Source of the DNA: a virus
Virus record (IMG/VR): IMGVR_UViG_3300030106_005509
Location: 1 to 64,000 of that record
Length of the DNA stretch: 64,000 bases
Reading direction: 5' to 3' (one strand)
Shown: piece after piece, positions 5,320 through 49,290 of the stretch
Numbering within the stretch: position 1 is the first letter of the stretch
Layout of the letters: the number at the start of each line of letters is the position of its first letter
Translations under genes and position numbers: made by a program
Notes under the pieces: generated by a model
Databases searched by the model: none
What the model was told of the DNA's origin: nothing
The model's input: only the letters and a program-made list of their open reading frames with translations

Positions 5320-5797
5320 ATACATAATATTAAGAGACACGAGAGAGAAGAACGGCTGGACTTTTCAATCGTTTGACCGCTGCAAAGCCGTGAAAGACTG
5401 GGGTTTGAAGACCGGCGACTACACGGCGAGAGGATTGGAAAAGAGCCTAGTAATTGAGCGCAAGGCCAGCACAGGCGAATTGGCTATGAATTTAGGGCAA
5501 AAGAGGAAGCCGTTTGAAGCAGAAATGGAGCGTATGTCTAATTTCCGATGGGCATACATAGTATGTGAGTTCTCGATTGACGACATTATGTCGTTCCCTG
5601 AGAACTCAGGAATACCAAAAAAGAGATGGCAGTACATGAGGATGAACGGAAAGTTTATATGGCGGAGAGTTAGGGAGTTGGAGGAAAAATATAACGTGGT
5701 GTTTCTATTCTGCGAAAACAAAGTGGATGCCGAAGAAAGAGTGTTTAGGATTTTTGATGAAGTTACGGAGATACTAATTCGTGAACAAGTCAGTTAA
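5309..5797 (+). CDS. ERCC4/XPF-type nuclease
   Basis: RDTRE...LKTGDY...VIERKASTGEL matches the ERCC4 GDxnERK motif set. Confidence 0.8.
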   Translation: MRSEYIILRDTREKNGWTFQSFDRCKAVKDWGLKTGDYTARGLEKSLVIERKASTGELAMNLGQKRKPFEAEMERMSNFRWAYIVCEFSIDDIMSFPENSGIPKKRWQYMRMNGKFIWRRVRELEEKYNVVFLFCENKVDAEERVFRIFDEVTEILIREQVS

Positions 5798-32144: not shown

Positions 32145-32546
32145 ATGGATGATTCTTATAACGAATTAGTTAGAAAATCTCAAAGTTACAAAGAAAACAG
32201 AGATACAAAATATAAACAAGTTTCTAAGGAAAGATTGCTAAAGATATCGCAAAAGAAAATACAAACAACTATGATTGGTGCTTTAAGCACAATTGAAAAG
32301 TACTTTGGTTTTCTTTGGGGTCATGAGACTTCCGATGGTGAATTAACACCAGAGCAGAGCCACATGAAGCAGCAGTTTGAAGAGGTTAGGGCCGAAATAT
32401 TAGATAGAGGCAATAATCAGATTAGAAACTTAGAAGCTGAATTTGTTAATTATGATATTAGCTGGTTAAGATATCAAATGAAATTACCGGTAAAGCCAGT
32501 TAATTTGGACCATGAAAATCAAGGAGATGAAGATGGCAAAGAGTAG
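32145..32546 (+). CDS. hypothetical protein (tail assembly region)
   Basis: AGGAG RBS, 133 aa. Confidence 0.7.
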   Translation: MDDSYNELVRKSQSYKENRDTKYKQVSKERLLKISQKKIQTTMIGALSTIEKYFGFLWGHETSDGELTPEQSHMKQQFEEVRAEILDRGNNQIRNLEAEFVNYDISWLRYQMKLPVKPVNLDHENQGDEDGKE

Positions 32547-33489
32547 GAACAAAATTGAATCTAATGACGCAGATGGAAATAAGAAGGTCTTATACCTCAT
32601 TGATCCTGATGCAAAAATTAATAAGGAAGCACAGCTTGCTTACAACAGAGCTTTTAGAGACGCGCTACAATCTGGTGCTATTTTAAGACAAAAGCTTGAT
32701 GACGTTCTCAGAGATCAAGAAATCTGGGACGATAAGAAGCAAGAACGATACAACCAAATTTTGAAAACCTTAAATGATAATGAAAAGGCTATCAAAAAAG
32801 GCGGTATTAAACTTTCTGAAGCTAAGGATATAGCTGAAGAGATGGCTGTTGTTAGAGCAGAATTTAGAGCTTTGATCGCTGAGAGAAGTTCTATGGATGG
32901 CAACACAGCTGAGGGACAGGCAGACAACGCAAGATTCAATTTCCTTGTCTATGCTTGCACCAAAGACCTTAAGAATCAACCAGTATTTTCTAGTGTAGAC
33001 GAATACGAAGAAAATGCAACTGAGCCATACGCTCTTGAAGCAGCAAAACAGCTTGCAGAGAAAATGTACGGCTTGGACGCAAACTACGAAAACACACTTC
33101 CTGAAAATGAATTCTTAATCAATTATGGTTTTGTAAACGACAACCTTCAATACATTGATAGCGAAGGCAAATTAATCACGGCTGACGGACAGCACGTAAG
33201 TGAAGACGGCAGACTGATTGAGTGGCAAGAAGATGGGTCATTCATATATATAGATGGCGACGGAAATAAACTAACCGAAGATGGGGAATACGATGTTGAA
33301 TTTTCTCCGTTTTTGGACGACGAAGGAGAGCCTGTAGAGAAGGCTGTTTCTGAATCGGAAGAAGTCTCTGAAGAAGCTTCAGAAGAAGCATCTGACGAAA
33401 CTGAGGAAGCTGAGGAGTCTAAAGAAAAGGAACCTGCCCCAAAGAGAGGCAGAAGATCTAAAAAGACAACTGTAAACAGCAACGAATAG
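32533..33489 (+). CDS. putative tail assembly chaperone with acidic tail
   Basis: AAGGAG RBS then ATG 32533; immediately upstream of TMP. Confidence 0.55.
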   Translation: MAKSRNKIESNDADGNKKVLYLIDPDAKINKEAQLAYNRAFRDALQSGAILRQKLDDVLRDQEIWDDKKQERYNQILKTLNDNEKAIKKGGIKLSEAKDIAEEMAVVRAEFRALIAERSSMDGNTAEGQADNARFNFLVYACTKDLKNQPVFSSVDEYEENATEPYALEAAKQLAEKMYGLDANYENTLPENEFLINYGFVNDNLQYIDSEGKLITADGQHVSEDGRLIEWQEDGSFIYIDGDGNKLTEDGEYDVEFSPFLDDEGEPVEKAVSESEEVSEEASEEASDETEEAEESKEKEPAPKRGRRSKKTTVNSNE

Positions 33490-33559: not shown

Positions 33560-36500
33560 ATGGCTAAACCGTTTGTATTAACAACACAACTACAGATACA
33601 GATACCAAACCTTAACCAAGTTGTCAGTCAGCTTAACAAGGGGTTAGGTAATGTAAATGTTCCTGTTAATATTAATATACCTAAAAATGCCAACACTCAG
33701 CTTACTAATTTAAACAAAAACGTCAAGAACGCTGGAGCCTCTGCTCGCGGTGCAGCAAAAAACTTTGACTCCATGAGAAACTCTCTTAGGGGTGCGCTTA
33801 CTTATATAGCTAAGTACGACGCCGCTAGAGAGATTTTCAATCTATTTGCACAAACACTTAGAGATGGTGTTTCTTCTGCAATAGCTTTTGAAAAAGAAAT
33901 GGTTAAGGTCAGTCAAGTTACTGGTCAAACCATGAAACAATTAAGGGGTTTGGAGCGAGAGATAACCAGAGTTTCTACAGGCTTTGGGGTCTCTTCAGGA
34001 TCTTTAATTAAAACCTCTAGGGTATTAGCTCAGACTGGTATGTCTGCTAGAGATGCTAGGATAGCTCTTGAAGCCCTCGCTAAAACAACTCTGGCCGCTA
34101 CGTTTGACGATATTACATCTACCACAGAAACCGCCATTGCTGCAATGAGGCAGTTTGGTATAGCCTCGACAGACTTAGAAAAGACGCTTGGTAAAATTAA
34201 CTCCTTAGCAGCTAACTTTGCTGTTGAGGCTGGTGATATCGGCGTAGCCATCAGGCGTGCTGGTGGTGCGTTCAAAGCTGCCGGTGGAAGTCTTGATGAA
34301 CTTAATGCTCTCTTCACCGCTGTTCGTTCTACCACTCGTGAAACAGCGGAAACTATTGCTACTGGTTTTAGAACTATCTTTACCAGAATACAAAGACCAA
34401 AAACTATACAGTTCTTAAAACAGTTAGGTATAGAACTGCAAAATGTAGAAGGTCAGTTCGTAGGACCGTTTGAGGCTGTAAGAAAATTAAATATAGCTCT
34501 TAAAAGTCTAGACCCCAAAGACGTTAGATACTCACAGATCATTGAACAGCTTGGTGGTTTCAGGCAGGTCTCTAAAGTTATACCACTTATTCAACAATTT
34601 GGTCAGGCACAGAAAGCCCTAAATGTATCTCAGCAAGGTGGTACTAGTCTTGCTAGAGACGCTGCAAAAGCACAACAGAGTCTTGCAGTCCAGTTGACAA
34701 AGGTCAAAGAAGAATACATGGCTCTGTTTAGAGAGATATTTGGCGGTCAAGGAATGCAAACCGTCATAAAGACCACGCTTAAACTAGCCTCCGCTTTCGC
34801 TAGAGTTGTAGATTCTCTTTCTCCTATAATACCTCTTATTGCAACTATAGGTGCTGCCAAGTTAGGTCAGTTTGCTCTCTTTGGAAGTCTTGGCAGAGGT
34901 AGAAAACAGGGAGGTAGAATAAATAGGTTTGCTACTGGTGGTATGGTTCCCGGAAAAGGAAATAGCGATAGCGTTCCTGCCATGCTTACTCCCGGAGAGT
35001 TTGTAATACGTAAAAGTTCTGTAAGAACAATTGGCGCCAACCGTTTGCAAAAGATGAACAGATACGGTAACGGCGGAACTGTAGAAAGAGGTCAAGTACA
35101 ACGAGTCGCCAACAGAAAAGCTTCTCTAAAAAATAAATATGATATTGGCGAAGGTGGTATTCACGATAAATACAGAGCCAAATTGACAATTAAAACTTTC
35201 GACCCCAATGATAAAGAGGTGGGTCGCAAAGCTATTGAAGCCGAAGCAAAAGAAGCAAAAGCATATGGTCAAAAAAGATATCAAGCCCTTCTTAAAACCA
35301 GTGGGGATGAAAAGAGGTCTGCGATAAGAGCTGGTGCTTTGATGCGGAAAAGATTTGGTCTTTCAGGATTCATAGGTAAAAGGACAAGTGGTCAATCTAA
35401 ATTTTTTACGTCTAAAACTCCAAGACAATCACAAGGTGTTACGAACAACCTCGTGGGAGGAATCCATGAAAGAAATGTAAGTGGATGGGCAAAGAAAAAT
35501 TACAAGAGCGCAAGAGTTGGTAAGCTTCCAGACGCAGACGGAATGGATTTTAGAGTTGGTAACAGCGGCGTTCTCATCGAAGCGAAGAGCCTAAAGAGAA
35601 AATTAAATAGAGACGAGATCATAGCAAAAGGTTTACTCGCTAAAGCCGTCAGTAAAAACTATCAAGACAAAGTTTCGCAAGATGTTAATTTAAAAGAACT
35701 TGTATATGCTGAAGCGCCAGCGAGCCTGAAAAAATCTGGGTTTACCAAGAGGAATAGAGGAGGAGGCATATCATCAACAGATACAGTTCCCGCACTCCTT
35801 ACTCCCGGCGAATTCGTAATCAATAGAAAGTCCGCAGCTAAGATTGGTTACGGCAACCTTAACAATGCAAATAGATTTGGTAAAACACCTAAAGGATTTG
35901 CTGCTGGTGGAATAGTAGGCGTACAGAAATTCAATAACGGTGGAGAAGCAAGAAGTCCCCGTCTTGGTTTAGGCGTTTTTGTTGCACTACAAACAATATT
36001 GCCACAGTTAGCAGAAGCTTTTAAATCAGCCGATGGAGAAGTTACCGATCTTTCTATGGGGCTTGACGCGGCAAGCCAAGGCTTGATGACATTTGCTACA
36101 TTGAGCTTTGCTACTGGTGATTTGCTAGAAGGTTTTGGTGGCAAAGTAAAGTTTGCTGCAACAGGCTTATTGGCTGTAGGGGCAGCTGCATTTGCTGCTT
36201 ATCAGTATGAAAAACAAAGAGGGATGGAGAGAGAGAAGCGTGCTGTTAAAAACCTTGAAGAAGGAGGTTTTCAATCTGAAACGCGAACAGCAGGTCTTAG
36301 GCGTCAATTCATAGACGCTAGGAGGCAACAAACTGAGGGTGCTGGCGGAGCTGCTGGTCGTGTAGCTGGAGCTGCTGGTGGCGCTTATGCTGGAATGAAA
36401 GCTGGAGCATTAATAGGAGGATTGACTCCAGCTGGCCCAGTTGGTGCTTTGGTTGGAGGTATACTTGGAGCTATAGGAGGAGGTATCGCTGGATATTTTG

Positions 36501-39500
36501 GTGGCGGTGCTATTGGAGAAGCAATAGGAAAATTAAACTTTGATGAAGCTGGAGCTATAAGAGAGTTTAATGAAAAAGTTAAGTCGTTAAAACTTGGCGT
36601 GTCGATAGACGGGTTAACAAACTCCTTAAAAGCTTTTTCTGAAGGAAGAGCTTCTATTGGCGCTATAGCCTCTACTGTTAGAAGCGGTATAAAAAGTCTA
36701 CAAAGAGGCTTCTTTGATGTTAGCACCGAAGAAGGTCTTGAGCGATTTAGAGGCCAACTACAAAAAACTTTACCAGCACTTTCCGAGTATATAAACAAAG
36801 CTGCATCTTCTGCAAAAAGCATGGCTGAGTTTGATGCGATCATAGGTGACGAGGCTTTAAATGCATTCTCGCAACTTAGCGGACAAAGCATTCCAGAGTT
36901 AAGAAGACAAATACAAGAAAATATAGCGCAAAGAAAGAAAAGCGCCGCTGCTCAAAAAGCAAACATAGCAGCAATTCAAGCATCAAACAAAGTCCTCTAC
37001 AGAGCAAGAGATGCTGGTACTGCATTTATGGAACTAGAAAGAAGACTTGTTTCCTTCGACAATGTAATGTCTGGTGTTGAAGCTTCTATAAACAACACCT
37101 TCTCTGGGCTTTCGATTGGCAAGATCGCTCCCAACTTTGATGACATAACTAACATATTTGATATGTCTGCCTTTACTGCTCAGGTAGATAGCCTATCAGG
37201 TGTACTTGGAGAGTCGGGACAATCTTTGGGTCAAGACCTCAAAAACTTTGCCGCCCTTAACTCTCTTCTTCCTAACATATTAACAGAAGCCGCTGGAGAA
37301 ATTGGAATTGGTGGCGCTAGAGCTTCTGAAATTATAGAGTCTAAATTAATGGCTGCTGATCCGGGAGGGATTATAGGCGCTGAGTTTAGAAGGGTTATTG
37401 CACAAAGAGTTCAGGCCATTGCCGAGATGGGTGAAGGTGGCGAAGGTAAGTTTGCTAATAGAATAAGAACAGATATTGAAGGTGTTGTAAGAGACCTCAC
37501 TAAAGGCATGTCTGAAACTGCTGAAGCTTTCCAAAAAGCTGCTCAGTTTATAGATAGTGCAAATCAAAGATTAGCTAAGGCGTACAACTTAAGAACTCAA
37601 CTTGAGTTAAAACAAGCTAGACAGCTTTATGACATTATAGGTCTTCAGGCTGAAAACGCTGAAAGAATGTCAAAGGCCAGACGCCAACCAGTCAATGCTG
37701 ATGCTGATTTAAATACGTTTAATAACCAACAAAACGCAATCTTAAGCGGAACTGCCATAAGCGGCTTGGGTTCAAGCGTAACTATAGTTTCAAACGAATT
37801 TAACAGGCTAAAGCAAAGAATAAAAGAAAGTGATGCTGCACTTGCAAATCTCGGAATTGCAGCAGATTCTAGTGGTGACCTGTTAGAAAACAATAGAGCT
37901 TTAATTGACGAAAACGCAGCTCTAAAATCGCAATTTGAAAAAACAAAACAAGTTCTTGAGAACTATGCTAACGTACAAGCTAGAGTAGCAAAAGTTCAAG
38001 AAGAAATTGCAAATGCTCAAGCCAGACAAGATAAAGCAAAAGCTGTAGCTGAAAATATAGCCTTTGGTACAGATCAAGAAAGACTAAAAATCTTTAGAAG
38101 CTTTAAAGCCGCAGAAATTGTGGCTTCTAGAGGTCTAGCAGCCTTACCTCAACAATTTAGAGGCGATGCTAGGAACATGTTATCACAGTTTGCTGATGCT
38201 CCAATATTTGGAGGGAAAACAGGTCAGCAGATACTAGACCGAGAAACCGCCAATCTGTTTAAGCATTTTCCACCTAATATAAGAAAAGCTTTAATGGCGG
38301 AGTTTGCAGACGCAAGAACAGATGAGCAGAAGTTCTTAGATAGGCTAGACAAGATTCAGCAAGACGCTGTAAAAGCTCAATTTGCTTTCCTTGAGGGTAT
38401 GCGTGGGGATAGCAAAGACCTAAAAGAAACCATAGCAAAGCTCAACGCAACTCTTGCAAATGACTTAAGGACTATATTCCAACAACAAGAAAATAGAGCT
38501 TTGGCAAGAGAGGTGTCTGAGAGCAAAGGCACGCTAGCTAACTCTAAAGCCCAGCTTGAAAAGTTAAAAGAAATAAGAAGTGCTGGAATACCCGTTCAAG
38601 ACCCGGCTGTTTTAAACGCTGTTAGAAGCAATGTAGCTGGCATAAAAGCTCTCAAAGACGCTAGACAAAATCTTGCTAGGTTTACGGGAGCGCAGGAATT
38701 TGGTATCAATCTTAGAAGCCAAGAGAATAGATTTACAGGCTTTGCTGCGGCTGATTCAGGCAGAGACAATCTAAAAGCCATAAAAGTGTTAGGCGCACAA
38801 CTTAGACAGCAGTTTGGCGCAGATGTTGGAAACCAATTACTACAAAAAGCAATTGATGCTCTTGCTCAATTTAGGGTAGAGAACCCAGAGGCGACAGGCG
38901 CAGAAATAGCTAAGGTCATCGGAGACACGATTAGTGGCGCTGGACTATCGGGTGCTAGTAGCGCACAAGGCATTATTGATGAAACAATGGCAAATCTTAA
39001 TGCTGCTGGTCTTGGGCCATATGTAGATACATTGGTTAACAATGTAGACATGATATCTACAGCCTTGGCAGCATTTCCAAGTGAAGCAAGTTGGTCTTCA
39101 TTAGAAGAGTCTATAATAAGAACCACAACCACTATAAACAACGCAAACGCTGCTATTGCTGCTAATAGTCCGGCGGGAGCTGTTAAGCTGGCGTCAGGTG
39201 GAAGTATATTTTCTCCACACGGAACAGACACCGTCCCTGCTATGTTAACACCCGGCGAATTTGTCGTTAACAGAAAAGCTGCTCAAAGAAACATGGGTGC
39301 GCTGTCGGCTCTTAATAGTGGAAAAACCCAATACTTAGCTGGTGGTGGTAAAGTTGGTGATTACTTTGGAACCCAAGCCGTCAGAGAGGATGGCAAAAAA
39401 GTAGAAGATGTATGGGGGTCTCACAATAAAGCTGCTGAGGCAATTGCGTCGTGGTATAAAAAACAGACTTCAAGCAGTGGTGCAGGTTCTGTATTTGACT

Positions 39501-42500
39501 CATCCAGACACTACATGGCTAAAAAGTACGCTGACCAAGACATGGCTGGAATAGCCAAAAATATACTCAAGTCAAAAGACAACGGCGATGGAATCCCTAT
39601 GAAAGACCCTCAGTATAGGGCGATGGGGGCTGGAGCTGAAAGAAAATCTTATAGTGGTAAGTATGCAAACTTACCAAAAGCCGTTAAGAATTATTTTCAA
39701 AGCGGATTCTTAGGCGTCAATGGATATAGCTATGGCCAAATGAGTGGTATAGAAGCCTTAGACTATTTTAAGTACGGCACTAGAATGTTCATGGATGGTG
39801 CTGGGAGTGGTGCAACTGGCAGGAATTACGGCGGTCAAGCTCTAGGTGAATATAAGACTATTGGTAATTTACAAAAAGCAGCAGGAAAAAGCAGAGAGAA
39901 TCAAGCAAGCAAACTATACGAAAAAGTAGTAGAGTGGGCTGAAGATAAAGCCTTTAGTAGAAAAACAATGAAGGTTGGTCTCTATAGATTCCCGCTTAAA
40001 AAATCAAAAATAGAAGCCTATGATGATCCAGACACTAATATAAGTGTTGATGGGTTCACGTACCCTAATATTCAACCGGGTGACATATTAGAGAACGATC
40101 CGCAGCTATACGATCTATTCACAGGCGGCAGTCCGGGAGGCAGAAAGCTAGGAGTTGTTTCTTCTGGCTGGGTTCCTGTTGGAGACGCATCTGAAGCTGG
40201 TGCTGGATTTACAGGAGGTCAGTTTTTCCCCGGTAATGAGCTTGAAGAAGTTTACAAGAACTTAGAAGGGTGGATATTTAACTCAGGCTCTCAATATAGC
40301 AAATTTGTTAAAGAGTATCTCACCGGAAATGCTGGAAGAACTGAACTAGCTGTTGTTCGACAGGCTTTTGGTGAGTTTGACAAAATCTGGGGTGGGCTAA
40401 AGCCTAAAAATTGGAAAACCCCAGCAGGATATAATTTAGCAAACGAACCTAGAGCTAACTTTAGTTATATCAAAGGTCTTGTTGAACGTAGACTTTCAAC
40501 AACAGAAAAACAGCTTGCTGACAGTTTTCCATTTAATCCCATGGATATAGATACTTGGGGTTCAGCAATAACTAGCAACACAAGACCTGTCGCTGCGCTT
40601 CAAGAACATTCTCAAAATAGAAGTGATCTATATCAGAAGATGAAAGACTTCTATGCGCAGTTTAAGTTTAAAAATGCACAAGACCCAACGCTTGCATTTG
40701 GTAAAGCTTTTGAAATTGTTCAAGACGATCTTAAAACTGGAGTTAAGGGATACGACGCTAATAATTTTATAAGATTAGCCAACAAAAATGTAGCAGGTCA
40801 ACAAGACGAAAAACAAAGACGCGAAGAAAAGCTAGAGTCCGTCGCAACCGCTATGAAAAACGTGAAAGGTCTCCCTACTGGACTTGGGGCGTTATCAGAA
40901 CACATAGCACAATCCATTAAAGGATTCAAAGCAGCAGGCAACTTCACTAAAATTCCTATGTACGCTAAAAGATCGTCAGCATCTTTGAGAGGTGTTAGAG
41001 ACTTCTGGCAGGCTAAGGATTGGGGCCAAGGAGAGACAAAAGCTTTATATCCTTGGTTAAGCGCTTTGGCTACTGAATTAAGCAGATGGGTAAGCGGCGG
41101 TCTTGTTACAGGAGCTGGAGCTGATAAAAAGGGCGCGTTTATAAACCTAAACGACGCCGAGGTTTTCCGTCAATTAGCAAGAATACAAGACGCTAGAAAT
41201 CAAGGTAAGAATATAGAAGAAGGCGTTGAGGTATTAAAGAAAAACCAGCTGGGAGAAATAATCCAAAGCTTTGAAGGTCCTAGCTTAATGGGTCGTATAG
41301 CGAGGATAGCCAGAAATAAACCTAATGCTTGGTATAACGTAGGTTTTGGTGATGAGTTTCCTTACTATGGAACTTTTGGTTTCGACTCTGTATCAGAAGC
41401 TGTAGGCAAACTTCAAGAAGAAGTAAAGAGAAGTTTTGAAAATACAATACTCATATACAATGAGCAATTTAAAGCAGGTCAAAGACCATTCCAAGCGGCT
41501 AATAAAAATCCTCTACTAATGGCTACGGGTGGTAAAGTTCCCCAACGTTTAGCTTCTGGTGGCGGTGTCTTCGCGTCACGAGGAACCGATACAGTTCCGG
41601 CGATGCTTACACCGGGTGAGTTTGTTGTTAATAAAGATGCGGCCTCTAAAAACAAAGGAGCTTTACAAGCTATTAATAGCGGCCAAACACAATACCTTGC
41701 CGGTGGAGGTGAAGTGCAAGCATGGAAGATGAGAGGTTTTGAATCGACTGGAGGGGTTGGTAATAAAATACTTGCAAGAAACTGGCGGGATACAGCTGCA
41801 AAATACTATCCAGATAAAGAGTTGCCAATGTTATCAACTCCAGCAAGTATAAAATATTCTGGGCCAGACAGAAACCGTGCCGCCATGTCGATGGGCCACC
41901 TCATGCGTCTTGAAGAGATAGCTGGATGGGACATACTTAAATTTCGCGAATATAGAGATAAAATACTTAATTTAAAACTTGCAGACCTTGGGGTTGATCC
42001 TTATGAAATATATCCAAAAGCGCAATCAGGAAGTATTGATCATGAATACGAAGGACAGTCACAAAAACGAGATTTACCAGTTATTTCCAAAACGGGAGAA
42101 GTAAGGCATGTAAATGCTTTAAGAGGTCAGGCGGGACAAAAGCTATTTGGGCATCTGACTAGTGATCCTGTAGCTTATCTTGCGAACTTTAAAAGAGATG
42201 ACTTTTACGAGTATGGAGCAACTGGTGGATATACCGTTAGGGATGCTAACAGATACAGTAGTTTTGATTTAAGAGACAAAGCAAATCCCGGAGGAAAATA
42301 TCGTTTGGTAGGACCTCCTAAAGGTAAGCTACCATCAATTGGAAACATATTTCAGGGTATGCGTGCAAAAGATCAAAAGGCGAGTGGCGATGCTGCTGCG
42401 CTTGCAGATAAAGAGCTAATCGCAATGCAACAGCTAGTTGCAGCTAGAGGTAGCTTCTACGGAGGCGACAGATTTGGTGATATAGAGACCAAAGCCTTTG

Positions 42501-45500
42501 CGTATATGAATAGGGACATGGATGGTGGAGAGTTTGTAGATGTACTTTCCGAAAAAGCTTTATCCAGCATACTTGCTAAAAGCGATATATCGCCTGAAAA
42601 CAAAGAGATTCTAGGTAGAAAATGGGCGAATGTTCACACAAGATTTAAGCGCCAGACTAAGCATGTCATAAGGGGAACAGGGATGGTAGATCCCGAAAAC
42701 CCCGCTTTGACAAAATACGGAGGAGGCGCATCAAGTTTCGAGAGCAAGCTAACTCAATCCTACGCAAAGCTACGTCAGCTAGCGCAAGAGAATTCGGTAA
42801 GCGAAGCTCACCGGGTCAAACTTACGTATGGAGGGATGACTCCAGAACGTATGCGTGGCGGCTTAGAAGGTGACGAAAAGGCTATTATTCCTTTAAATGA
42901 TCCAAACATACTCGATATTATCGAATCGCAAGCAGGGTCTCACTGGAGAAACAACAGCCTGCTTCATATGACACAGCTGAAAAACGATTTGGAAAAAAGA
43001 GTAGCTGGCGGCTCTCTTGGTCCTGAAGACCTGTCGGGTGCGCAAGCGCGATTAAAACAATACGAAGAGTCGATGATATGGGCTAGGTATCTTGAAACGA
43101 TTAGGATGCAGCCCGGCCAATATGGTAAATACATACTTAGAGACATAGAACAACTTTCTGAAACAAGAGCTGGAGGTTTAGACAAACAAACCTTTAACCA
43201 AATGCAAGTGCAGAAAGAGCGTCAGGCAAGAGGTAGAAGTCTTGAACTGACAGCTAAGCATTCAGGACTTTCAGGACTGGTTGATTACTTAGGCTATGCC
43301 TTTAGTCCTTTTGAGCAATTTGAAGATCAAATGCTTAAAAGCAAAGTTGCTGAAATGAGGGATCAAGGATATTCAGAATCACAGATCGCCAGTTTTGTGG
43401 GCGAGGTGAAAAAACATAACTCAATCGCTACCGCCATGACAGAAAGTGTAGCGGCTAATCCGGTGACTAAAGCTCTCGGTAAAGTTGGCATCAGTATGGA
43501 GCAAGTGCTTGGGTCTGGATTGCAAGCACTAAAAGGTTTCTACCATCTATCAGCGGGTGAAGAAAGAGCAGCAGCAATAGAGTTTGGAGCTGCGGCAGTT
43601 AGTTTTGATGAAGGTCTTAACGCTCTTGAAGCTTTGCCCGATTGGAACAAACAGCATGTAAGCAAGGTTGAAGAAAGATGGAAGGCCGAACTTGGGTTAA
43701 GCGATAAAGAGGTTGGAAATAGATCACGCGCTCTTATGATGGCTGATATAGCATCTATGTTCGTTGTGCCTCCGGGACTGCTTGCAAAAGCTGTAACGGC
43801 GCCGATAAAGCTTGGGAGGAAATTGACACCAACAGTAGTAAGAGCAGCTATTGCTACACAAAGAACCGCCAAGAAAACTCTGTTCGGAGCTGGAGAAACA
43901 GGTGCGGCTTTATCTAGAGGTGGAAAATCTGGCGCAGGTTTGCCTAAATATATTGGTGACGATTTTGCAACCGCAGGGAAGCTAACACCGAATCAAATCG
44001 CAAAAGCGGAAGTAGTCACCGATTTACGTGGGCCTGTAAGACCAAAGTCGGGTGTGCAGCATAGCGCTAATAATCCAATTAGACAAAATGCCATTGCTAA
44101 TTATAACAGGGCAAATCCCGAATCAATGGTAAGTAAATTTGATGAGCTTCCAGCATGGGCTAAGCGAGACGCTGTGAATGCGGAGACCGCAGCACGAAAA
44201 CTTGGAGAAATGCGAGATAGTCTTGGCACTTTCTTCAAAAAAATGACAGACACAGACAAATCAGTCGTAAAAGGAGGTGTAACAGCTGACGCTCTTAGTG
44301 TAAATAAAAGAACAGGTGTAGCAACACCATACAAGAAAACTCCTTTCCAAGATGCGGATGCTATGTCGGGGGTAGTGTCAAAAGCTGATGCTGATGCAGC
44401 TATAACAAAAACTCTTAAAGACGCAGAAACTACCGGAATGATTGATGATATCTCTGCGGGTATAGACGCTGATAGAGCAATAGTTAGAAAAACAATTGAT
44501 GATGCTATTGTGCGTCCTAAAATTAGTCAGCAAGAAATTGTACGAGCCAACATGGAGCAAACTAGGATACCTCGTCATGGAGGAATAGTTGAAGGACCTG
44601 CTGGTCCAGTTGCGTTAGACCCTAGTCAAGCCGGTTCTCGCTTTGCGACAACAAAAGCTGATGTTATCTCTGTTGGAGGTGTTGGAGACGATGTTACTAG
44701 AGGTGCTACAAAAACTACAGGTCCACACTCACGGTTCGATGCTCACCTACAGTCTCAGAAAAAATTAGCAGACATAAGGTCGCAACTTAAAGATCCAAAC
44801 TTAACCCCTGAACGAATGGCAGCGCTTAAGCGTCTTGAGTCTCGTTATAGTGGCTCTATCCAAGCAAGAAGTACAAAAGCCACCGATATCTCGGGTCCCA
44901 CAGGTCTACAAGGCACAGGATTAAGTACTCGTCGTAATGTTATTGATAGGGCAGTGGCGAGAGAAAAAGTTGTCAATAACATTGTAGAATCAGCTACGGA
45001 CAACACGATTCCAAGAGCTACCCAGACCAAATTCACTCCTGCATCCACCGCCGCAGACCCTGCGACTACAGCAAAAACAAAAACTTTTGCTGGAAAGATG
45101 AATGAAAAAGGCCGAGGGTCAATACGTAAAGAAGATTTGGATACTGTTGAGATGAGGACTAAAACAAGTCCTGATGATGCGTATATAGATCAGGCGGCTA
45201 TGCAGCAACAAGCTATTAATATACAAAAACAGTTACAACAATTTGAGGCAACTCAAGTAGCATCGACTCCAACAACTGCTGGGGGTAGAAGTGCCAAACG
45301 AGCCGCAAATCAACAGGCAAGTGATAATGCGGCAGCACTGGCAGCAAAGAGGAAGGAGCTTTATGAAGCAGCAGGCTTTGGTTCTGAAAAAGAATATAGA
45401 AAAGCTCTCGAAAAAGCCCAAGCTAATTCAATGTTTGATACATCTAAAGGAAACGTAGATGTAAGAACAGCAGATGTACAGGCAAGTGATGAAGCAATCG

Positions 45501-46801
45501 CTCTTAATCGTGACAGGAAAAGACTTTTCAACATAAGAGAGAGACTCCAAGACAGAAGAAGTTTAAGTGGTGAAGAATTACAAAGATTGGAGCAACTGGA
45601 GTCAACTTATGATAAACAAGTTAAGTACGCGAAAGGTTTACTTGAAGGAAAAATAGCACGCGGTGAACGTCTTACTTACACGCGTAAGGCAAAACAAGCT
45701 GCGGAAGCTGAAGAAATGATAACGATTTACCGTGGTCTTGGAGATGATGGTGGCGAGGCCCTTTCCAATTGGTGGACTACAGACTTAGAAAAGGCAATGA
45801 GTTTCACAGGGAGAGAATCTGGGTCTTTGGTTTCTGTCAAAATTCCAAAATCAGCTGTGAAAAAATTTGATGTTAAGAGTCTTAACGAAAGCCTTCAACT
45901 GCAAAAACAAATGGATGCTGGTGGAATTTCTCAAGATGCATTTGATGCTTTGGGGGTTTCTAAGTCTAGGTTGGAAGAGATTGAAAGAATCGCGATTGCT
46001 GCTAAGGGCCAGAAGGAGACAGATTTTGGTCTAGAAATGTTCTTCTCACAAGATTTTCTTAATCAGTTGAAAGGCTCGAAAATGAAGAGGCTTGACGTTG
46101 CTGATTTGGGTCTGGGTCCGACAGCGAAGAGGCCAAAAATGCCGAAAGGTGCGCAAGGATCTATGCCTTCCCCTGAACAGATGAAAGAGTTTACGAAGCT
46201 CAACCGTAAGGTCACTGCGGACCATTTTAAACGTAAAGAAACAATATTAGATGCGGCGAAAGATTTATTTAAGACTCAGGGATATGCTAAGGGTGGCATT
46301 GTATCTTACTTTAATTCTGGTGGACCGGCTATGGGAACAGATACGATTCCTGCAATGCTCACACCCGGAGAGTTTGTTGTAAGAAAAGCCGCTGTAGATT
46401 CTGTAGGTGTAGAAACACTTAGAGCTATAAATAATATGGGCAAAGGCTCAACAAGTTCTAAGCCTAAGAAAAGAGCTGGAGTTAACTACTTAGCTAATGG
46501 TGGTCAAGGTGAAGCCTCTGGGTTGAGAATGCCAACTCTAGATGTAAAAGACTTTAATACAGCTATAAGTAAATTTGATAGCTCTGTTGATAGACTTGAA
46601 AAAATATTCGGCAACGGCATACAAATGACGCACAATTTTGAGGACATGAATGTTATTGTAACAGTAAACGGAAACTTTGGTGATGATGACGGTGAATTAA
46701 GTAACGGAATGCAGAGAAGAATTAACAGAGAAGTTAGAAAGGGTATAAATGACTTTATAGACAGGTCATTCCCAGATATACCTAGAATGGACATAGCTTA
46801 A
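33560..46801 (+). CDS. giant tape measure protein (4413 aa) with repeated TPGEFV modules and inserted cargo domains
   Basis: TP901-like TMP core near the N-terminus (FEKEMVKVSQVTG...ETIATGFRTIFTRI), glycine-zipper/TM segments, five D(T/S)(V/I)PA(M/L)LTPGEFV repeats; position after tail chaperones. Confidence 0.9.
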   Translation: MAKPFVLTTQLQIQIPNLNQVVSQLNKGLGNVNVPVNINIPKNANTQLTNLNKNVKNAGASARGAAKNFDSMRNSLRGALTYIAKYDAAREIFNLFAQTLRDGVSSAIAFEKEMVKVSQVTGQTMKQLRGLEREITRVSTGFGVSSGSLIKTSRVLAQTGMSARDARIALEALAKTTLAATFDDITSTTETAIAAMRQFGIASTDLEKTLGKINSLAANFAVEAGDIGVAIRRAGGAFKAAGGSLDELNALFTAVRSTTRETAETIATGFRTIFTRIQRPKTIQFLKQLGIELQNVEGQFVGPFEAVRKLNIALKSLDPKDVRYSQIIEQLGGFRQVSKVIPLIQQFGQAQKALNVSQQGGTSLARDAAKAQQSLAVQLTKVKEEYMALFREIFGGQGMQTVIKTTLKLASAFARVVDSLSPIIPLIATIGAAKLGQFALFGSLGRGRKQGGRINRFATGGMVPGKGNSDSVPAMLTPGEFVIRKSSVRTIGANRLQKMNRYGNGGTVERGQVQRVANRKASLKNKYDIGEGGIHDKYRAKLTIKTFDPNDKEVGRKAIEAEAKEAKAYGQKRYQALLKTSGDEKRSAIRAGALMRKRFGLSGFIGKRTSGQSKFFTSKTPRQSQGVTNNLVGGIHERNVSGWAKKNYKSARVGKLPDADGMDFRVGNSGVLIEAKSLKRKLNRDEIIAKGLLAKAVSKNYQDKVSQDVNLKELVYAEAPASLKKSGFTKRNRGGGISSTDTVPALLTPGEFVINRKSAAKIGYGNLNNANRFGKTPKGFAAGGIVGVQKFNNGGEARSPRLGLGVFVALQTILPQLAEAFKSADGEVTDLSMGLDAASQGLMTFATLSFATGDLLEGFGGKVKFAATGLLAVGAAAFAAYQYEKQRGMEREKRAVKNLEEGGFQSETRTAGLRRQFIDARRQQTEGAGGAAGRVAGAAGGAYAGMKAGALIGGLTPAGPVGALVGGILGAIGGGIAGYFGGGAIGEAIGKLNFDEAGAIREFNEKVKSLKLGVSIDGLTNSLKAFSEGRASIGAIASTVRSGIKSLQRGFFDVSTEEGLERFRGQLQKTLPALSEYINKAASSAKSMAEFDAIIGDEALNAFSQLSGQSIPELRRQIQENIAQRKKSAAAQKANIAAIQASNKVLYRARDAGTAFMELERRLVSFDNVMSGVEASINNTFSGLSIGKIAPNFDDITNIFDMSAFTAQVDSLSGVLGESGQSLGQDLKNFAALNSLLPNILTEAAGEIGIGGARASEIIESKLMAADPGGIIGAEFRRVIAQRVQAIAEMGEGGEGKFANRIRTDIEGVVRDLTKGMSETAEAFQKAAQFIDSANQRLAKAYNLRTQLELKQARQLYDIIGLQAENAERMSKARRQPVNADADLNTFNNQQNAILSGTAISGLGSSVTIVSNEFNRLKQRIKESDAALANLGIAADSSGDLLENNRALIDENAALKSQFEKTKQVLENYANVQARVAKVQEEIANAQARQDKAKAVAENIAFGTDQERLKIFRSFKAAEIVASRGLAALPQQFRGDARNMLSQFADAPIFGGKTGQQILDRETANLFKHFPPNIRKALMAEFADARTDEQKFLDRLDKIQQDAVKAQFAFLEGMRGDSKDLKETIAKLNATLANDLRTIFQQQENRALAREVSESKGTLANSKAQLEKLKEIRSAGIPVQDPAVLNAVRSNVAGIKALKDARQNLARFTGAQEFGINLRSQENRFTGFAAADSGRDNLKAIKVLGAQLRQQFGADVGNQLLQKAIDALAQFRVENPEATGAEIAKVIGDTISGAGLSGASSAQGIIDETMANLNAAGLGPYVDTLVNNVDMISTALAAFPSEASWSSLEESIIRTTTTINNANAAIAANSPAGAVKLASGGSIFSPHGTDTVPAMLTPGEFVVNRKAAQRNMGALSALNSGKTQYLAGGGKVGDYFGTQAVREDGKKVEDVWGSHNKAAEAIASWYKKQTSSSGAGSVFDSSRHYMAKKYADQDMAGIAKNILKSKDNGDGIPMKDPQYRAMGAGAERKSYSGKYANLPKAVKNYFQSGFLGVNGYSYGQMSGIEALDYFKYGTRMFMDGAGSGATGRNYGGQALGEYKTIGNLQKAAGKSRENQASKLYEKVVEWAEDKAFSRKTMKVGLYRFPLKKSKIEAYDDPDTNISVDGFTYPNIQPGDILENDPQLYDLFTGGSPGGRKLGVVSSGWVPVGDASEAGAGFTGGQFFPGNELEEVYKNLEGWIFNSGSQYSKFVKEYLTGNAGRTELAVVRQAFGEFDKIWGGLKPKNWKTPAGYNLANEPRANFSYIKGLVERRLSTTEKQLADSFPFNPMDIDTWGSAITSNTRPVAALQEHSQNRSDLYQKMKDFYAQFKFKNAQDPTLAFGKAFEIVQDDLKTGVKGYDANNFIRLANKNVAGQQDEKQRREEKLESVATAMKNVKGLPTGLGALSEHIAQSIKGFKAAGNFTKIPMYAKRSSASLRGVRDFWQAKDWGQGETKALYPWLSALATELSRWVSGGLVTGAGADKKGAFINLNDAEVFRQLARIQDARNQGKNIEEGVEVLKKNQLGEIIQSFEGPSLMGRIARIARNKPNAWYNVGFGDEFPYYGTFGFDSVSEAVGKLQEEVKRSFENTILIYNEQFKAGQRPFQAANKNPLLMATGGKVPQRLASGGGVFASRGTDTVPAMLTPGEFVVNKDAASKNKGALQAINSGQTQYLAGGGEVQAWKMRGFESTGGVGNKILARNWRDTAAKYYPDKELPMLSTPASIKYSGPDRNRAAMSMGHLMRLEEIAGWDILKFREYRDKILNLKLADLGVDPYEIYPKAQSGSIDHEYEGQSQKRDLPVISKTGEVRHVNALRGQAGQKLFGHLTSDPVAYLANFKRDDFYEYGATGGYTVRDANRYSSFDLRDKANPGGKYRLVGPPKGKLPSIGNIFQGMRAKDQKASGDAAALADKELIAMQQLVAARGSFYGGDRFGDIETKAFAYMNRDMDGGEFVDVLSEKALSSILAKSDISPENKEILGRKWANVHTRFKRQTKHVIRGTGMVDPENPALTKYGGGASSFESKLTQSYAKLRQLAQENSVSEAHRVKLTYGGMTPERMRGGLEGDEKAIIPLNDPNILDIIESQAGSHWRNNSLLHMTQLKNDLEKRVAGGSLGPEDLSGAQARLKQYEESMIWARYLETIRMQPGQYGKYILRDIEQLSETRAGGLDKQTFNQMQVQKERQARGRSLELTAKHSGLSGLVDYLGYAFSPFEQFEDQMLKSKVAEMRDQGYSESQIASFVGEVKKHNSIATAMTESVAANPVTKALGKVGISMEQVLGSGLQALKGFYHLSAGEERAAAIEFGAAAVSFDEGLNALEALPDWNKQHVSKVEERWKAELGLSDKEVGNRSRALMMADIASMFVVPPGLLAKAVTAPIKLGRKLTPTVVRAAIATQRTAKKTLFGAGETGAALSRGGKSGAGLPKYIGDDFATAGKLTPNQIAKAEVVTDLRGPVRPKSGVQHSANNPIRQNAIANYNRANPESMVSKFDELPAWAKRDAVNAETAARKLGEMRDSLGTFFKKMTDTDKSVVKGGVTADALSVNKRTGVATPYKKTPFQDADAMSGVVSKADADAAITKTLKDAETTGMIDDISAGIDADRAIVRKTIDDAIVRPKISQQEIVRANMEQTRIPRHGGIVEGPAGPVALDPSQAGSRFATTKADVISVGGVGDDVTRGATKTTGPHSRFDAHLQSQKKLADIRSQLKDPNLTPERMAALKRLESRYSGSIQARSTKATDISGPTGLQGTGLSTRRNVIDRAVAREKVVNNIVESATDNTIPRATQTKFTPASTAADPATTAKTKTFAGKMNEKGRGSIRKEDLDTVEMRTKTSPDDAYIDQAAMQQQAINIQKQLQQFEATQVASTPTTAGGRSAKRAANQQASDNAAALAAKRKELYEAAGFGSEKEYRKALEKAQANSMFDTSKGNVDVRTADVQASDEAIALNRDRKRLFNIRERLQDRRSLSGEELQRLEQLESTYDKQVKYAKGLLEGKIARGERLTYTRKAKQAAEAEEMITIYRGLGDDGGEALSNWWTTDLEKAMSFTGRESGSLVSVKIPKSAVKKFDVKSLNESLQLQKQMDAGGISQDAFDALGVSKSRLEEIERIAIAAKGQKETDFGLEMFFSQDFLNQLKGSKMKRLDVADLGLGPTAKRPKMPKGAQGSMPSPEQMKEFTKLNRKVTADHFKRKETILDAAKDLFKTQGYAKGGIVSYFNSGGPAMGTDTIPAMLTPGEFVVRKAAVDSVGVETLRAINNMGKGSTSSKPKKRAGVNYLANGGQGEASGLRMPTLDVKDFNTAISKFDSSVDRLEKIFGNGIQMTHNFEDMNVIVTVNGNFGDDDGELSNGMQRRINREVRKGINDFIDRSFPDIPRMDIA
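34967..46378 (+). repeat. five dispersed copies of the TPGEFV module inside TMP
   Basis: Core 13-codon copies at 34967, 35780, 39227, 41588 and 46340, all in the TMP frame. Confidence 0.95.
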
Positions 46802-46812
46802 AGGAATAACCA

Positions 46813-49290
46813 ATGGCTGATTCTTCAAAAGATCTCGGCTTAGTCATGTTTGGAAGCGTTGCTCGCATGACGGAGAGGGAGATATTTCCAAGCGGTGTCA
46901 ATAGGGAATTTGGATACTGGCGAGGAAGTGAAAACAAAAAGATCGTAAATAAGTTTAATAAGCTTTATATGCCTCTTGAGGGTAGCGGTCTGTATTCTGG
47001 TTCTCCTGTTGTAAAAGCTAAAAAAGATACTGCAAGCAATGCTAGTGGATTAAGTTGTGACCCAGAAGGTTGCGCTTGGATGTTTGATGGTTCTGATTGG
47101 TCTTTATATGAAGACCTATGTGGGTTAAGACCTACAGCATACGATGCTACTTGTGGATGCACAGAACCTCCTGAAGGCGGTGGTTTTATGGGCGACATAA
47201 AATCGACTGCATGTGTTGGCGGTGTTGGTGGAGGTGGAGGTTCAACCGCTGATGGAGACTCTGCTGGTGACGGATTTGCTGTATGGCAAAGAGCCGGAGA
47301 CCTCGTAGATATAATTGGTCAAGAGGCTATACAAGAAAGATGTCTATTCCTTTCCCAACGAGCTAATGTAAATCTTGGAAGCGGCGTTAGTCTAGCAAAC
47401 GCAAAAGGGTTTACTGTCTATTCAAAAATACTACCTAGTGGTGATATCAGTGATACAATCATCCTAGCTCAACACAAAGAAAACCCAGCAAAATTCGTTC
47501 TTGGTTGTGACTTTGATGGTAGGTTCTATATTCGTGCCGATGGAAATATAGAAGGTGCAAACACTGCTTTTACTGCTAAGTCAGCAAAGAGTTATCAAGA
47601 ATACAAATATCCTGCGCATGTAGTTGGTGTTTTTGCTTCTGGAGACTCAAAACTAAAGATATATGTAAATGGTATTAATGAGGGCGAGTCTCAGGTATTT
47701 AAAAGAGATCTAAGCGGTGCTGACAATACAGACATTATTTTAGGTAAAAGAGGTTTTGCTATATCTGAACGTGGTTACACGGGATGGGTAGATGAAGTAG
47801 GTATTAGTAGCAAGAGCTTTAGTGACGAAGAAGTTAGTCAGTTTTATAATAGCACTTTTGGCGTTACAGATATTATTAAAAGTTACTCTCCTCCTACAGG
47901 AGCTGCTTTTGACGCTGGATTATTTGCTGCTGACTTTGATGCTAAAGATAAAGACTTCATAGAATTTACCGTAGCTTCTGGTAATAGCGAAGGCGCTCTT
48001 GGTGGAGCTTTTGACCCAAATCTTTGGGGTAATTCTAATTACGCTGTATCTTCTGTGTTAAGTATTAGGATTGAAGAAGCGCCGCCAAACTTCCATCAGT
48101 TAGATACCGTAGCTGTTGATGTGTGGGTTGAAAATGCCACAAACCATCCAAGCGGAGCAAAATTCACAGCAGCGCTAGTGCATAAAGATGCAGAAAAACC
48201 TATCAATACAAGCAGGAGTCTCAATTGGTACGCTAGTGGCGTAATGATTCCTTCTGGAGATAGACAAAAAATAACTTTTGAAGCGCCACTAAATGGGTCG
48301 GATACTTTCTTCCCAGACGGCGCTATCCCTTTCAAAGATGATTTTGGAAAACATAATTTAGACCTTACAGTATTCTATCCAGAGTACGACCATCCATACG
48401 ATGCTGAATTCAAAATATATTCTACCAAAATAAGATATACGTCGTTTGACAGGTATCTTGGATTCAACAACATTGACGGATCTATATTAAATGGAGCGTC
48501 TTTAGGATTAAATAACGGTCAAGACCAACCCCTGTTTGTGGATGGGGGTTTGAAGGCTAAGGCTTCTGGTGATTTGAGACTTACTGTGTTTGCAGACAAA
48601 GCAGCACAGAGTATGCCTTTGGTTTTAAACCAAGATGCTAAAACTAGCATGGGCGATACGGGTCATGGGTATCTAACTGCAAATGGCGCGGTCTTGATAA
48701 ACCAGAATATGAACCTTAGTCTTCTTGGCGCTATTGAAAGAATGACTAAGACGTTGTTTATTGGTGGTAAAGTATTCACCGTAAACAACAACTTAAATTT
48801 GGAAACTAAGGGTGGTGTTAATATATATCCATATATACAAAAAACACTTCCCATCTTAATTGCTACAGAGCCGGGTTCTGGAATTTTTGAAGCTAGCATG
48901 AATCTAGCTCTCCCCAAAGTCAATCCGGCTAAGTTAAATGTTGACTTCCCTCAGTTTATTGAGGGTGAGCGACCAGTTGCAACAATGCCTCTGTATGTAA
49001 AAACAGCAGAGAGTGGAGTTACAACATTCCCGATATCATTATTAGGACCTTCTGTATATAAGAAGAATGAATCTATGAATCTTTATATGCAACCTGATAG
49101 TCCACAATTTTTAGCCAGAGGAAAGAGGCTTTCTGGGTCTCCCACAGTTAAGCAAAATAGTAATTTTGATTTAGTAACAGTAGGTAAAGCTACTTCAAGT
49201 GGAACTATGGATTTAGTGATAACATCCGTAAAGGCTAGTGGTAATTGGAATACAACTTTATACAGTCAAGGTTTTAGAACTACAGATTAG
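46813..49290 (+). CDS. tail-tip protein with LamG/concanavalin-like domain
   Basis: HVVGVF...LKIYVNG...IILG...GWVDEVGI LamG pattern; Cys-rich insert; C-terminal short beta repeats. Confidence 0.7.
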   Translation: MADSSKDLGLVMFGSVARMTEREIFPSGVNREFGYWRGSENKKIVNKFNKLYMPLEGSGLYSGSPVVKAKKDTASNASGLSCDPEGCAWMFDGSDWSLYEDLCGLRPTAYDATCGCTEPPEGGGFMGDIKSTACVGGVGGGGGSTADGDSAGDGFAVWQRAGDLVDIIGQEAIQERCLFLSQRANVNLGSGVSLANAKGFTVYSKILPSGDISDTIILAQHKENPAKFVLGCDFDGRFYIRADGNIEGANTAFTAKSAKSYQEYKYPAHVVGVFASGDSKLKIYVNGINEGESQVFKRDLSGADNTDIILGKRGFAISERGYTGWVDEVGISSKSFSDEEVSQFYNSTFGVTDIIKSYSPPTGAAFDAGLFAADFDAKDKDFIEFTVASGNSEGALGGAFDPNLWGNSNYAVSSVLSIRIEEAPPNFHQLDTVAVDVWVENATNHPSGAKFTAALVHKDAEKPINTSRSLNWYASGVMIPSGDRQKITFEAPLNGSDTFFPDGAIPFKDDFGKHNLDLTVFYPEYDHPYDAEFKIYSTKIRYTSFDRYLGFNNIDGSILNGASLGLNNGQDQPLFVDGGLKAKASGDLRLTVFADKAAQSMPLVLNQDAKTSMGDTGHGYLTANGAVLINQNMNLSLLGAIERMTKTLFIGGKVFTVNNNLNLETKGGVNIYPYIQKTLPILIATEPGSGIFEASMNLALPKVNPAKLNVDFPQFIEGERPVATMPLYVKTAESGVTTFPISLLGPSVYKKNESMNLYMQPDSPQFLARGKRLSGSPTVKQNSNFDLVTVGKATSSGTMDLVITSVKASGNWNTTLYSQGFRTTD

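Follow-up and report, generated by a model that had tools for sequence, protein, structure and literature searches.

What does a phage tail tape measure protein (TMP) with more than four thousand residues consist of, and is all of it ruler? TMPs are ejected ahead of the DNA, are cut in lambda and T5, and occasionally bear enzymes. The locus that raises the question lies in a 64,000-nt stretch of viral DNA (the window in what follows; positions 1 to 64,000 of the IMG/VR record IMGVR_UViG_3300030106_005509, which has 136,411 bp and is estimated to be 90% complete), where an open reading frame (ORF) on the plus strand at 33560..46801 runs from an ATG start, with no internal stop, over 4413 aa (P0001). 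An earlier note, made from the letters alone, had taken the product for a TMP and had read it as a modular polyprotein, with repeated motifs bracketing ruler and cargo segments. The first part of that proposal agrees with two curated models, whose cut-offs are passed by a wide measure: PF10145 of Pfam (aa 135-333, E 7.7e-26, 91.6 bits versus a cut-off of 33.2) and TIGR01760 of NCBIfam (aa 98-433, E 2.5e-33, 115.5 bits versus 28.8). PHROG tail tape measure families cover aa 42-461. By these matches the product is one TP901-type TMP; its best match among TMPs of cultured phages is YomI of SPbeta, at 24% identity.

We found that the protein is built of three kinds of part (Table 1): a conserved backbone (segments S1, S3 and S6), three stretches that we call bays (S2, S4 and S5), and a short junction module, of which one copy (M1 to M5) stands wherever a bay meets the backbone or another bay. 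Our preferred reading, to which we give a probability of about 0.5, is that the modules would act as hooks docking in the baseplate hub and/or as processing sites, and that the bays would be fast-evolving accessory ejected proteins.

The module is defined by a motif that is hard to obtain by chance. The expression D[TS][VI]PA[ML]LTPGEFV matches the TMP exactly five times, at aa 470, 741, 1890, 2677 and 4261 (nt 34967, 35780, 39227, 41588 and 46340), which reproduces every copy and coordinate of the earlier note, and none of 2000 residue shuffles of the protein contained it. Each copy sits in a module of 65-82 aa, whose layout over ~70 aa is hxxGG, then DTVPAMLTPGEFV, a helix, L..xN and a second hxxGG. 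The GG flanks had also been described, and 11 of the 13 [FYLM][ANST]xGG motifs in the TMP do fall within the 374 module residues (binomial p about 1e-10), an enrichment that is partly circular, the module borders having been drawn with a hidden Markov model (HMM) built on those five copies. A six-frame search of the 136,411-bp record found the module five times, always in the TMP ORF. Across 18 aligned modules (the window's own copies plus those of four IMG/VR relatives and a Nodularia phage), E36 and V38 are invariant and P29, P34, G35, L52 and N56 are conserved in at least 90%; for D26, invariance is limited to the five copies of the window. Neither Pfam nor NCBIfam has a model that matches the module, be it in the whole TMP or in the 18 modules, and its PHROG matches are only to families of unknown function.

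Selection on the module acts on the peptide and not on the DNA. The likeness of copies 3 and 4 that had been pointed out earlier is real (75% identity over 44 aa), but of the 32 residues identical in M3 and M4 only 9 have the same codon, and the longest nucleotide run common to two modules is 14 nt within the gene and 17 nt across relatives. Scrambled codons and such short shared runs rule out that the modules were duplicated recently, that they undergo gene conversion or that they serve as sites of DNA recombination. The suggestion that the module is a recombination unit consequently does not hold at the level of a DNA substrate, and recombination or gene conversion between modules was rejected on the same count. 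That the peptide is conserved while its codons are not suggests that the module peptide itself has a function.

Identity to the relatives of the protein alternates along the chain. Bays S2, S4 and S5 diverge two to three times faster than backbone and modules, or cannot be aligned at all, and identity switches within about 20 aa of the module edges. In P0003, which is truncated at its 5' end, 18 of 20 residues are identical at aa 2700-2719 and 2 of 6 at aa 2720-2739, on entering S5, while on leaving it the count goes from 9 of 20 at aa 4220-4239 to 18 of 20 at aa 4240-4259; the last ~180 aa of S5 (4050-4226) have been replaced. P0257 is 70% identical up to aa 505, has nothing alignable over aa 506-722, and resumes at 51% from aa 723. 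P0086 has S3 and S6 in common with the window TMP and three unrelated bays, and three IMG/VR relatives (L004, L005 and L006, with TMPs of 2,829, 3,292 and 2,919 aa) share with it only S1, the modules and part of S3. Homologues of S4 occur only in P0003 (90%), P0254 (39%) and P0274 (38%); scans of IMG/VR with S4 and S5a, and of metagenomes with S4, found no relatives. The check put forward in the earlier note, that modules are kept while the intervening stretches change, is thus borne out across relatives, with the switches in identity at the module edges.

The module also has counterparts in studied phages. Searched against PDB sequences, the 18-module profile matched two stretches of the Douge TMP (aa 964-1028 and about 1413-1458; E 1.5e-7), lambda gpH 729-784 (E 2.9e-4) and JBD30 TMP 1018-1067 (E 0.086). 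With hhalign, the comparison to gpH 701-853 gave a probability of 95.2% and E 2.9e-8, aligned at gpH 732-784, and these alignments make the module and the segment of lambda gpH at aa 732-784 distant homologues. The earlier statement that a single motif of this kind is common in TMP C-termini is correct in that the module occurs once in the C-terminal part of many TMPs, gpH included. PF09718 (Tape_meas_lam_C) and TIGR01541 match gpH, over 627-701 and 472-813, but neither the whole window TMP nor the 18 modules; since PF09718 ends at gpH 701, before 732-784, the module is unmodelled by Pfam in lambda too.

In published accounts, these regions are associated with cleavage and with the hub. Lambda gpH is cut in a glycine-rich region near its C-terminus to give gpH* and a ~14-kDa gpHC; cut site and catalyst are unknown, gpH ~690-817 is not resolved structurally, and gpH 818-849 binds the gpI trimer (PMC12617516). 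For JBD30, a hook made up of two helices and a beta-hairpin is predicted at 1022-1066 and a cut is proposed at 1066 (PMC11445458); the stretch that our profile weakly matches (1018-1067) coincides with this hook. T5 pb2 is cut after R1127, the preceding 43 residues being anchored in the opened hub, and this tail-assembly cut frees an enzyme-bearing C-terminal piece that leaves first (PMC10038345). In the Douge TMP only residues 1658-1699 are resolved (PMC13033339). The module is without a solved structure because only the last 33-42 residues of the JBD30 and Douge TMPs are resolved, and the papers hypothesise a role for it for single copies only. Our literature search, of incomplete coverage, found no description of multiplied gpH-type modules fencing variable bays.

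The window TMP resembles lambda gpH in that a homologous module lies ~70-100 aa from the C-terminus, as M5 does; in gpH this is within the glycine-rich cleavage zone. The gpH tail C-terminal to its module attaches, as a trimer, to the hub protein. In the window TMP 96 aa remain between M5 and the C-terminus; in 269 family members the median length beyond the last module is 118 aa. By position, S6 would correspond to the C-terminus that is hub-bound in lambda gpHC, T5 pb2C and the Douge TMP. A model of M5-S6 as three copies scored 0.01 and 0.00 and is evidence neither way. The differences are that gpH has one module, a TMP_2-type N-terminus and no bays, against five modules and a TP901-type N-terminus here; that T5 pb2 has one cut, one small muralytic cargo and no detected module; and that JBD30 gp46 and Douge gp16 have one and two copies, respectively, large variable bays not being described for either. 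The TMP of Nodularia phage kac65v151 (3,282 aa) was considered as a cultured test case and set aside, as its two modules are adjacent (aa 861-999) and its plan is different. The module was also seen in a gene annotated as lysozyme/endolysin in Synechococcus phage S-SCSM1 (a 229-kb cyanophage), at 164241-164384; the product may be a virion protein, TMP-like or otherwise, that has a lytic domain.

Judged by profile matches, the plan is widespread in metagenomes. When 1.84 billion representative proteins were searched with a profile of the five copies, 19,912 matched at E<=1e-3, of which 1,082 reached E<=1e-30; the 150 top-scoring matches are proteins of 2,122-7,872 aa with 4-11 stretches. For proteins of 145-2000 aa, 4,550 of 8,000 scored candidates reached E<=1e-10, and most of those listed carry PF10145. 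In a collected set of 273 proteins, biased towards high scorers, two modules were counted in 5 proteins, three in 110, four in 66, five in 46, six in 24, seven in 12, eight in 8, and nine and ten in one each. Splitting 272 of these proteins at their modules gave 1,366 segments, which fell into 431 clusters, 323 of them singletons. The cluster of S1 (cluster 0) is common to 216 of the 272 proteins and that of S3 (cluster 8) to 29 proteins besides the window TMP. In the basic plan, an N-terminal domain (about 460 aa), a bay (about 290 aa), a ruler (about 1000-1100 aa, with 4.4% aromatics) and a tail (about 100 aa) follow one another, each joined to the next by a module. Among the 30 proteins with the window's ruler cluster, some of which are cut at a contig end, 0-3 variable bays precede the ruler and 0-3 follow it. 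As the basic plan has a bay at the position of S2, that segment is no separate addition.

Some of these bays hold recognisable enzymes. P0157 has an ADPrib_exo_Tox domain at aa 1015-1164 (E 8.1e-20), between modules at 812-869 and 1199-1256. SLT domains lie in bays of P0211 and P0213, and in P0221 one bay combines SLT with a weak, sub-cutoff match to NlpC/P60 (22.3 bits, cut-off 23) and the bay after it holds LysM. Among 13 giant family members that we scanned, PF10145 was found in 12, and the other matches (three EF-hand models, Peptidase_M78 and C19orf12) occurred in one member each.

The bays of the window TMP differ from its backbone in composition. Aromatic residues (W+Y+F) make up 11.8% of S4 versus 5.6% of S3b, and an index of amphipathic-helix periodicity is 2.19 in S1, 1.93 in S3b and 2.57 in S6, against 0.84 in S2, 1.09-1.15 in S5 and 1.66 in S4. 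The division into ruler and non-ruler stretches made in the earlier note agrees with these differences in aromatic content and helical periodicity, both of them crude measures. In S4, many of the columns that are invariant across 39%-identical homologues are W, Y, F, G or P, which gives the segment the look of a folded domain. In a 5-sequence alignment, the C-terminal half of S2 carries a conserved E...D...ExK pattern (GGIHER, GMDF, IEAK): the D (G[MA]DF) and the ExK ([IVM]E[AVI]K) are present in all five sequences, and the upstream E (GG[IL]xE[RK]) in all four that cover it, P0003 starting after it. This half of S2 is a candidate PD-(D/E)xK nuclease core; AlphaFold2 (AF2) places there a helix, two strands and a helix at pLDDT below 50, and S2 has no Pfam match. 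The best-scoring ESM Atlas matches of S5a (0.81) are unnamed viral clusters, no more than a lead. An ADP-ribosyltransferase at aa about 4040-4100 ('IYRG...WWTTD') was considered and rejected: no Pfam match was obtained at E<=5 and, by eye, the spacing is too short and the ExE is absent.

Within S5 there is also a conserved island at aa 3480-3638 (43997-44473), whose identity to P0274 is 76%, between unalignable flanks, and to P0003 about 82% over aa 3501-3600; it matched no family. In the backbone, S1 terminates in a hydrophobic helix (aa 423-441), and aa about 926-990 of S3 are glycine-rich and, by eye from the translation, glycine-zipper-like.

We propose the following working for the TMP, which we take to be that of an uncultured marine siphophage-like virus. 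S1 is the N-terminal domain of the backbone and S3 its helical ruler-like part, and S6, by analogy, would plug the baseplate hub. The module would be a junction device at the level of the protein, docking as a 'hook' in the baseplate lumen and/or marking a processing site; this role is suggested because it has been proposed for JBD30 and because hook-like anchoring or the module itself is seen beside the cuts of T5 pb2 and lambda gpH. The TMP would leave the tail C-terminus first, so that S6, S5 and S4, whether still joined in one chain or released as pieces, would pass into the cell envelope before the presumed channel-forming S3 and S1. Entering ahead of these, the bays would be accessory ejected proteins of quick-changing content. 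A wider claim is that the module is a general junction-and-release device: docked and then cut, it would let one TMP send a series of proteins into the host in fixed order, ahead of the DNA and starting from the C-terminus, with the contents between modules exchanged; the present case would have three host-directed bays, and the cleavage of lambda gpH, which has lacked an explanation for 50 years, would be accounted for. This claim we hold only tentatively and consider doubtful.

Several results weigh against the proposal of docked or processed modules and ejected bays. To our knowledge, cleavage at an internal module is not known for any TMP. The match to the JBD30 hook is weak, T5 pb2 gave no module match in the profile search, and a JAB or NlpC/P60 peptidase like lambda gpK was not found in the record. 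Bays S2, S4 and S5 gave no match above cut-offs in Pfam, NCBIfam or PDB sequences, and the ESM Atlas gave no usable match for S4. The AF2 models of S4 (3-sequence alignment, mean pLDDT 36.2) and of M1-S2-M2 (2-sequence alignment, mean pLDDT 34.1) do not show a fold. S5b is poor in aromatics, rich in proline and spacer-like. Among recognisable domains, enzymes in bays are the exception, since the scan of 13 giants returned PF10145 nearly alone. In the close lineage, moreover, bay lengths are kept (1517, 1485 and 1489 aa for S5; 723, 722 and 718 aa for S4), and a length constraint therefore fits better than free exchange of cargo; as S2 and S4 stay collinear there, they diverge in place and are not swapped. 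The idea of a polyprotein that delivers several effectors from the tail lumen is accordingly supported in part: module homology, alternating conservation and the enzymes in the bays of other members speak for it, but no domain was matched in the bays of this TMP.

Most of these points can be turned into a different explanation, in which the 4,413-aa chain does nothing but measure a tail of ~0.65 um, the bays are filler under low constraint, and the modules are uncut structural joints, for example register marks, oligomerisation points or sites that bind chaperone or tube. Besides the bays that match no domain and keep their lengths while their sequence drifts, the low AF2 confidence, the composition of S5b and PF10145 as the recognisable content of 12 of 13 giants, published tails lend it weight. 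In Douge a tube of 269.6 nm corresponds to a 1699-aa TMP with two modules, or 1.59 A per residue, so that the whole chain appears to behave as ruler, again at the expense of our proposal; in TM4, the tail becomes about 20 nm shorter when 114 aa of an enzyme motif embedded in the TMP are deleted (PMC1796659); and the 5,002-aa TMP of P23-45 (gp96), with an N-terminal virion RNA polymerase, is described as defining a tail of extreme length (PMC10770324). By analogy, we infer a tail of about 0.65-0.7 um for the window phage at 1.5-1.6 A per residue, with the bays lying in the tail lumen in a non-native state and probably counting towards tail length too.

Against a chain that only measures stand the aromatic content of S4 with its invariant W, Y, F, G and P columns and folded-domain look, the lack in S2 and S5 of the amphipathic-helix periodicity of S1, S3b and S6, the real enzymes at the same positions in relatives, the 0-3 bays on each side of one ruler family, and the strong peptide-level selection on the module. 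We consider this explanation unlikely as a complete account, although its central premise is compatible with cargo, the TM4 motif being ruler and enzyme at once. Ruler and cargo would thus not be alternatives, and we doubt the opposition between them in the earlier note, given that bays keep their lengths here and that segments embedded in the TMP add to tail length in TM4 and probably in Douge. TM4 gp17, with its peptidoglycan hydrolase motif, and P23-45 gp96 resemble the proposed arrangement in having enzymes built into a tail-carried TMP. They differ in that their papers describe no repeated junction module, and the window TMP, for its part, has no recognisable enzyme and carries its extra segments after the ruler and not at the N-terminus.

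Another possibility is that the module is itself autoproteolytic, through the conserved Asp/Glu of DT..PGEFV or the Asn of L..xN, so that the TMP would fall into six proteins while the tail is being assembled. Lambda gpH is cut close to its single module by a catalyst that is unknown (PMC12617516), the tail peptidases searched for in the record were not found, and the near-invariant residues of the 18 modules, E36 and V38 in the first place, would suit such a role. However, none of our analyses indicates catalysis, the lambda copy has M at the Asn position in the hhalign alignment, an AF2 model with two modules is unfolded, and the density of the Douge TMP persists through the whole tube despite its two modules. 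We regard self-cleavage as improbable.

An artefact (a chimeric assembly, or several genes misread as one, with repeats from mis-joined contigs) is hardly credible, for although assemblers can be misled by repeats, and contigs aligned at 85% likeness give 'joints' from S1 to module cores, e.g. 34567 to 46339, the frame is stop-free over 13.2 kb of 40% G+C DNA, the at most 14 nt common to any two modules are insufficient for mis-assembly, the 'joints' have sides of 21-41 nt that fit conserved parts of relatives, promoter-like and terminator-like sites inside the gene are no more frequent than in shuffled sequence (22 vs 27.4 and 11 vs 14.1), and independent contigs span the junctions. These contigs, from other marine runs and with 0-2 differences, cross M1-S2-M2, M3, M4 and the junction from M5/S6 to the next gene (two of the contig lists, X3 and X4, are identical and may be a single data set). 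Since near-identical contigs span the junctions and the five modules of P0274 (4,391 aa) lie at almost matching positions, the TMP gene is real. A further protein, P0002, is 100% identical over the searched regions and represents a 10-member cluster at 90% identity. The 'joints' and loose ends at module cores were also considered as deletion variants and are read instead as the conserved parts of relatives.

Polymorphic toxin systems and the 'polyvalent proteins' of phages likewise combine a conserved delivery scaffold with fast-changing payload segments. The window TMP shares with them the quick-changing, presumed payload on a conserved scaffold, and the family member P0157 carries an ADP-ribosyltransferase; it differs in that this presumed payload is internal and fenced on both sides instead of forming the C-terminal tip, and in that neither a toxin-family match to S2, S4 or S5 nor a JAB or NlpC/P60 peptidase in the record was obtained. 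A polymorphic effector system in the strict sense of toxin domain plus immunity gene, as the earlier note had it, is therefore not what the bays indicate, S2, S4 and S5 being without toxin-family match; immunity genes were not searched for.

The literature that we searched does not describe what is seen here: a module that lambda has once, beside its cut, recurs within single proteins in thousands of metagenomic TMPs, where the blocks that it fences change, by evolution or exchange, much faster than the scaffold does. If the module docks or is cut, the cleavage of lambda gpH would gain a concrete target for mutation, giant 'dark' TMPs could be read as ordered sets of ejected proteins, and tail-delivered payloads might be engineered on a natural scaffold. 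If it is only a structural joint, it would explain how very long rulers are constructed and which of their parts are free to drift. The window TMP is a clean example of the arrangement, and P0003 and P0274 show the alternation of blocks at the module edges; they add nothing on the function of the bays.

Table 1. Parts of the TMP and adjacent genes in the window, with amino acid identity of each part to two relatives (P0003 is 5'-truncated).
Feature	aa	Position (nt)	Strand	Basis or content	Identity to P0274 (%)	Identity to P0003 (%)
Two overlapping ORFs directly upstream of the TMP		32145-32546, 32512-33489	+	usual tail assembly chaperone position		
S1, TP901-type N-terminal TMP domain, conserved	1-444	33560..34891	+	PF10145, TIGR01760	92	uncovered
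M1, junction module 1	445-526	34892..35137	+	FATGG ... DSVPAMLTPGEFV ... YGNGG; regular expression, module HMM	77	uncovered
S2, first bay	527-718	35138..35713	+	between M1 and M2	36	37 (last 57 aa only)
M2, junction module 2	719-797	35714..35950	+	regular expression, module HMM	87	90
S3, glycine-rich stretch, then helical ruler-like segment	798-1864	35951..39151	+	composition, periodicity	66	89
M3, junction module 3	1865-1930	39152..39349	+	regular expression, module HMM	79	98
S4, second bay, aromatic-rich	1931-2653	39350..41518	+	composition	38	90
M4, junction module 4	2654-2718	41519..41713	+	regular expression, module HMM	77	92
S5, third and largest bay, fastest-diverging part	2719-4235	41714..46264	+	block identities	29-42	S5a 42, S5b 68, S5c 39
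M5, junction module 5	4236-4317	46265..46510	+	regular expression, module HMM	87	94
S6, conserved C-terminal tail	4318-4413	46511..46798	+	block identities	95	100
Next gene, 825 aa		46813..49290	+	ConA-like lectin domain, Laminin_G_3 aa 184-342, E 1.2e-10		

The genes around the TMP gene are all on one strand. The two ORFs upstream of the TMP gene, which matched no family, overlap by 35 nt, the second being in the +1 frame with its own ATG. To judge from its lectin domain, the next gene downstream probably encodes a protein of the distal tail or baseplate that has a sugar-binding insert. A further ORF at 57509-64000 encodes at least 2,164 aa and is open at the window end, and the large ORFs upstream of it encode 645, 1,471 and 610 aa; those of 825, 645, 1,471 and 610 aa matched no PHROG family. 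A candidate for the large terminase at 5781-7745 scored just under the cut-off for Terminase_6N (21.6 bits vs 22), and the portal and capsid candidates matched no family. On these comparisons the phage is very distant from described phages.

Within the TMP gene, internal promoters and terminators were not above the shuffled expectation. The 4,413 residues of the protein include no cysteine. The phage turns up repeatedly in seawater: DNA nearly identical to window positions 39000-47000 occurs in marine metagenome runs of several studies (2014-2019), and in seven of these runs, two of which are possibly the source, at least half of the words sampled from that interval were present.

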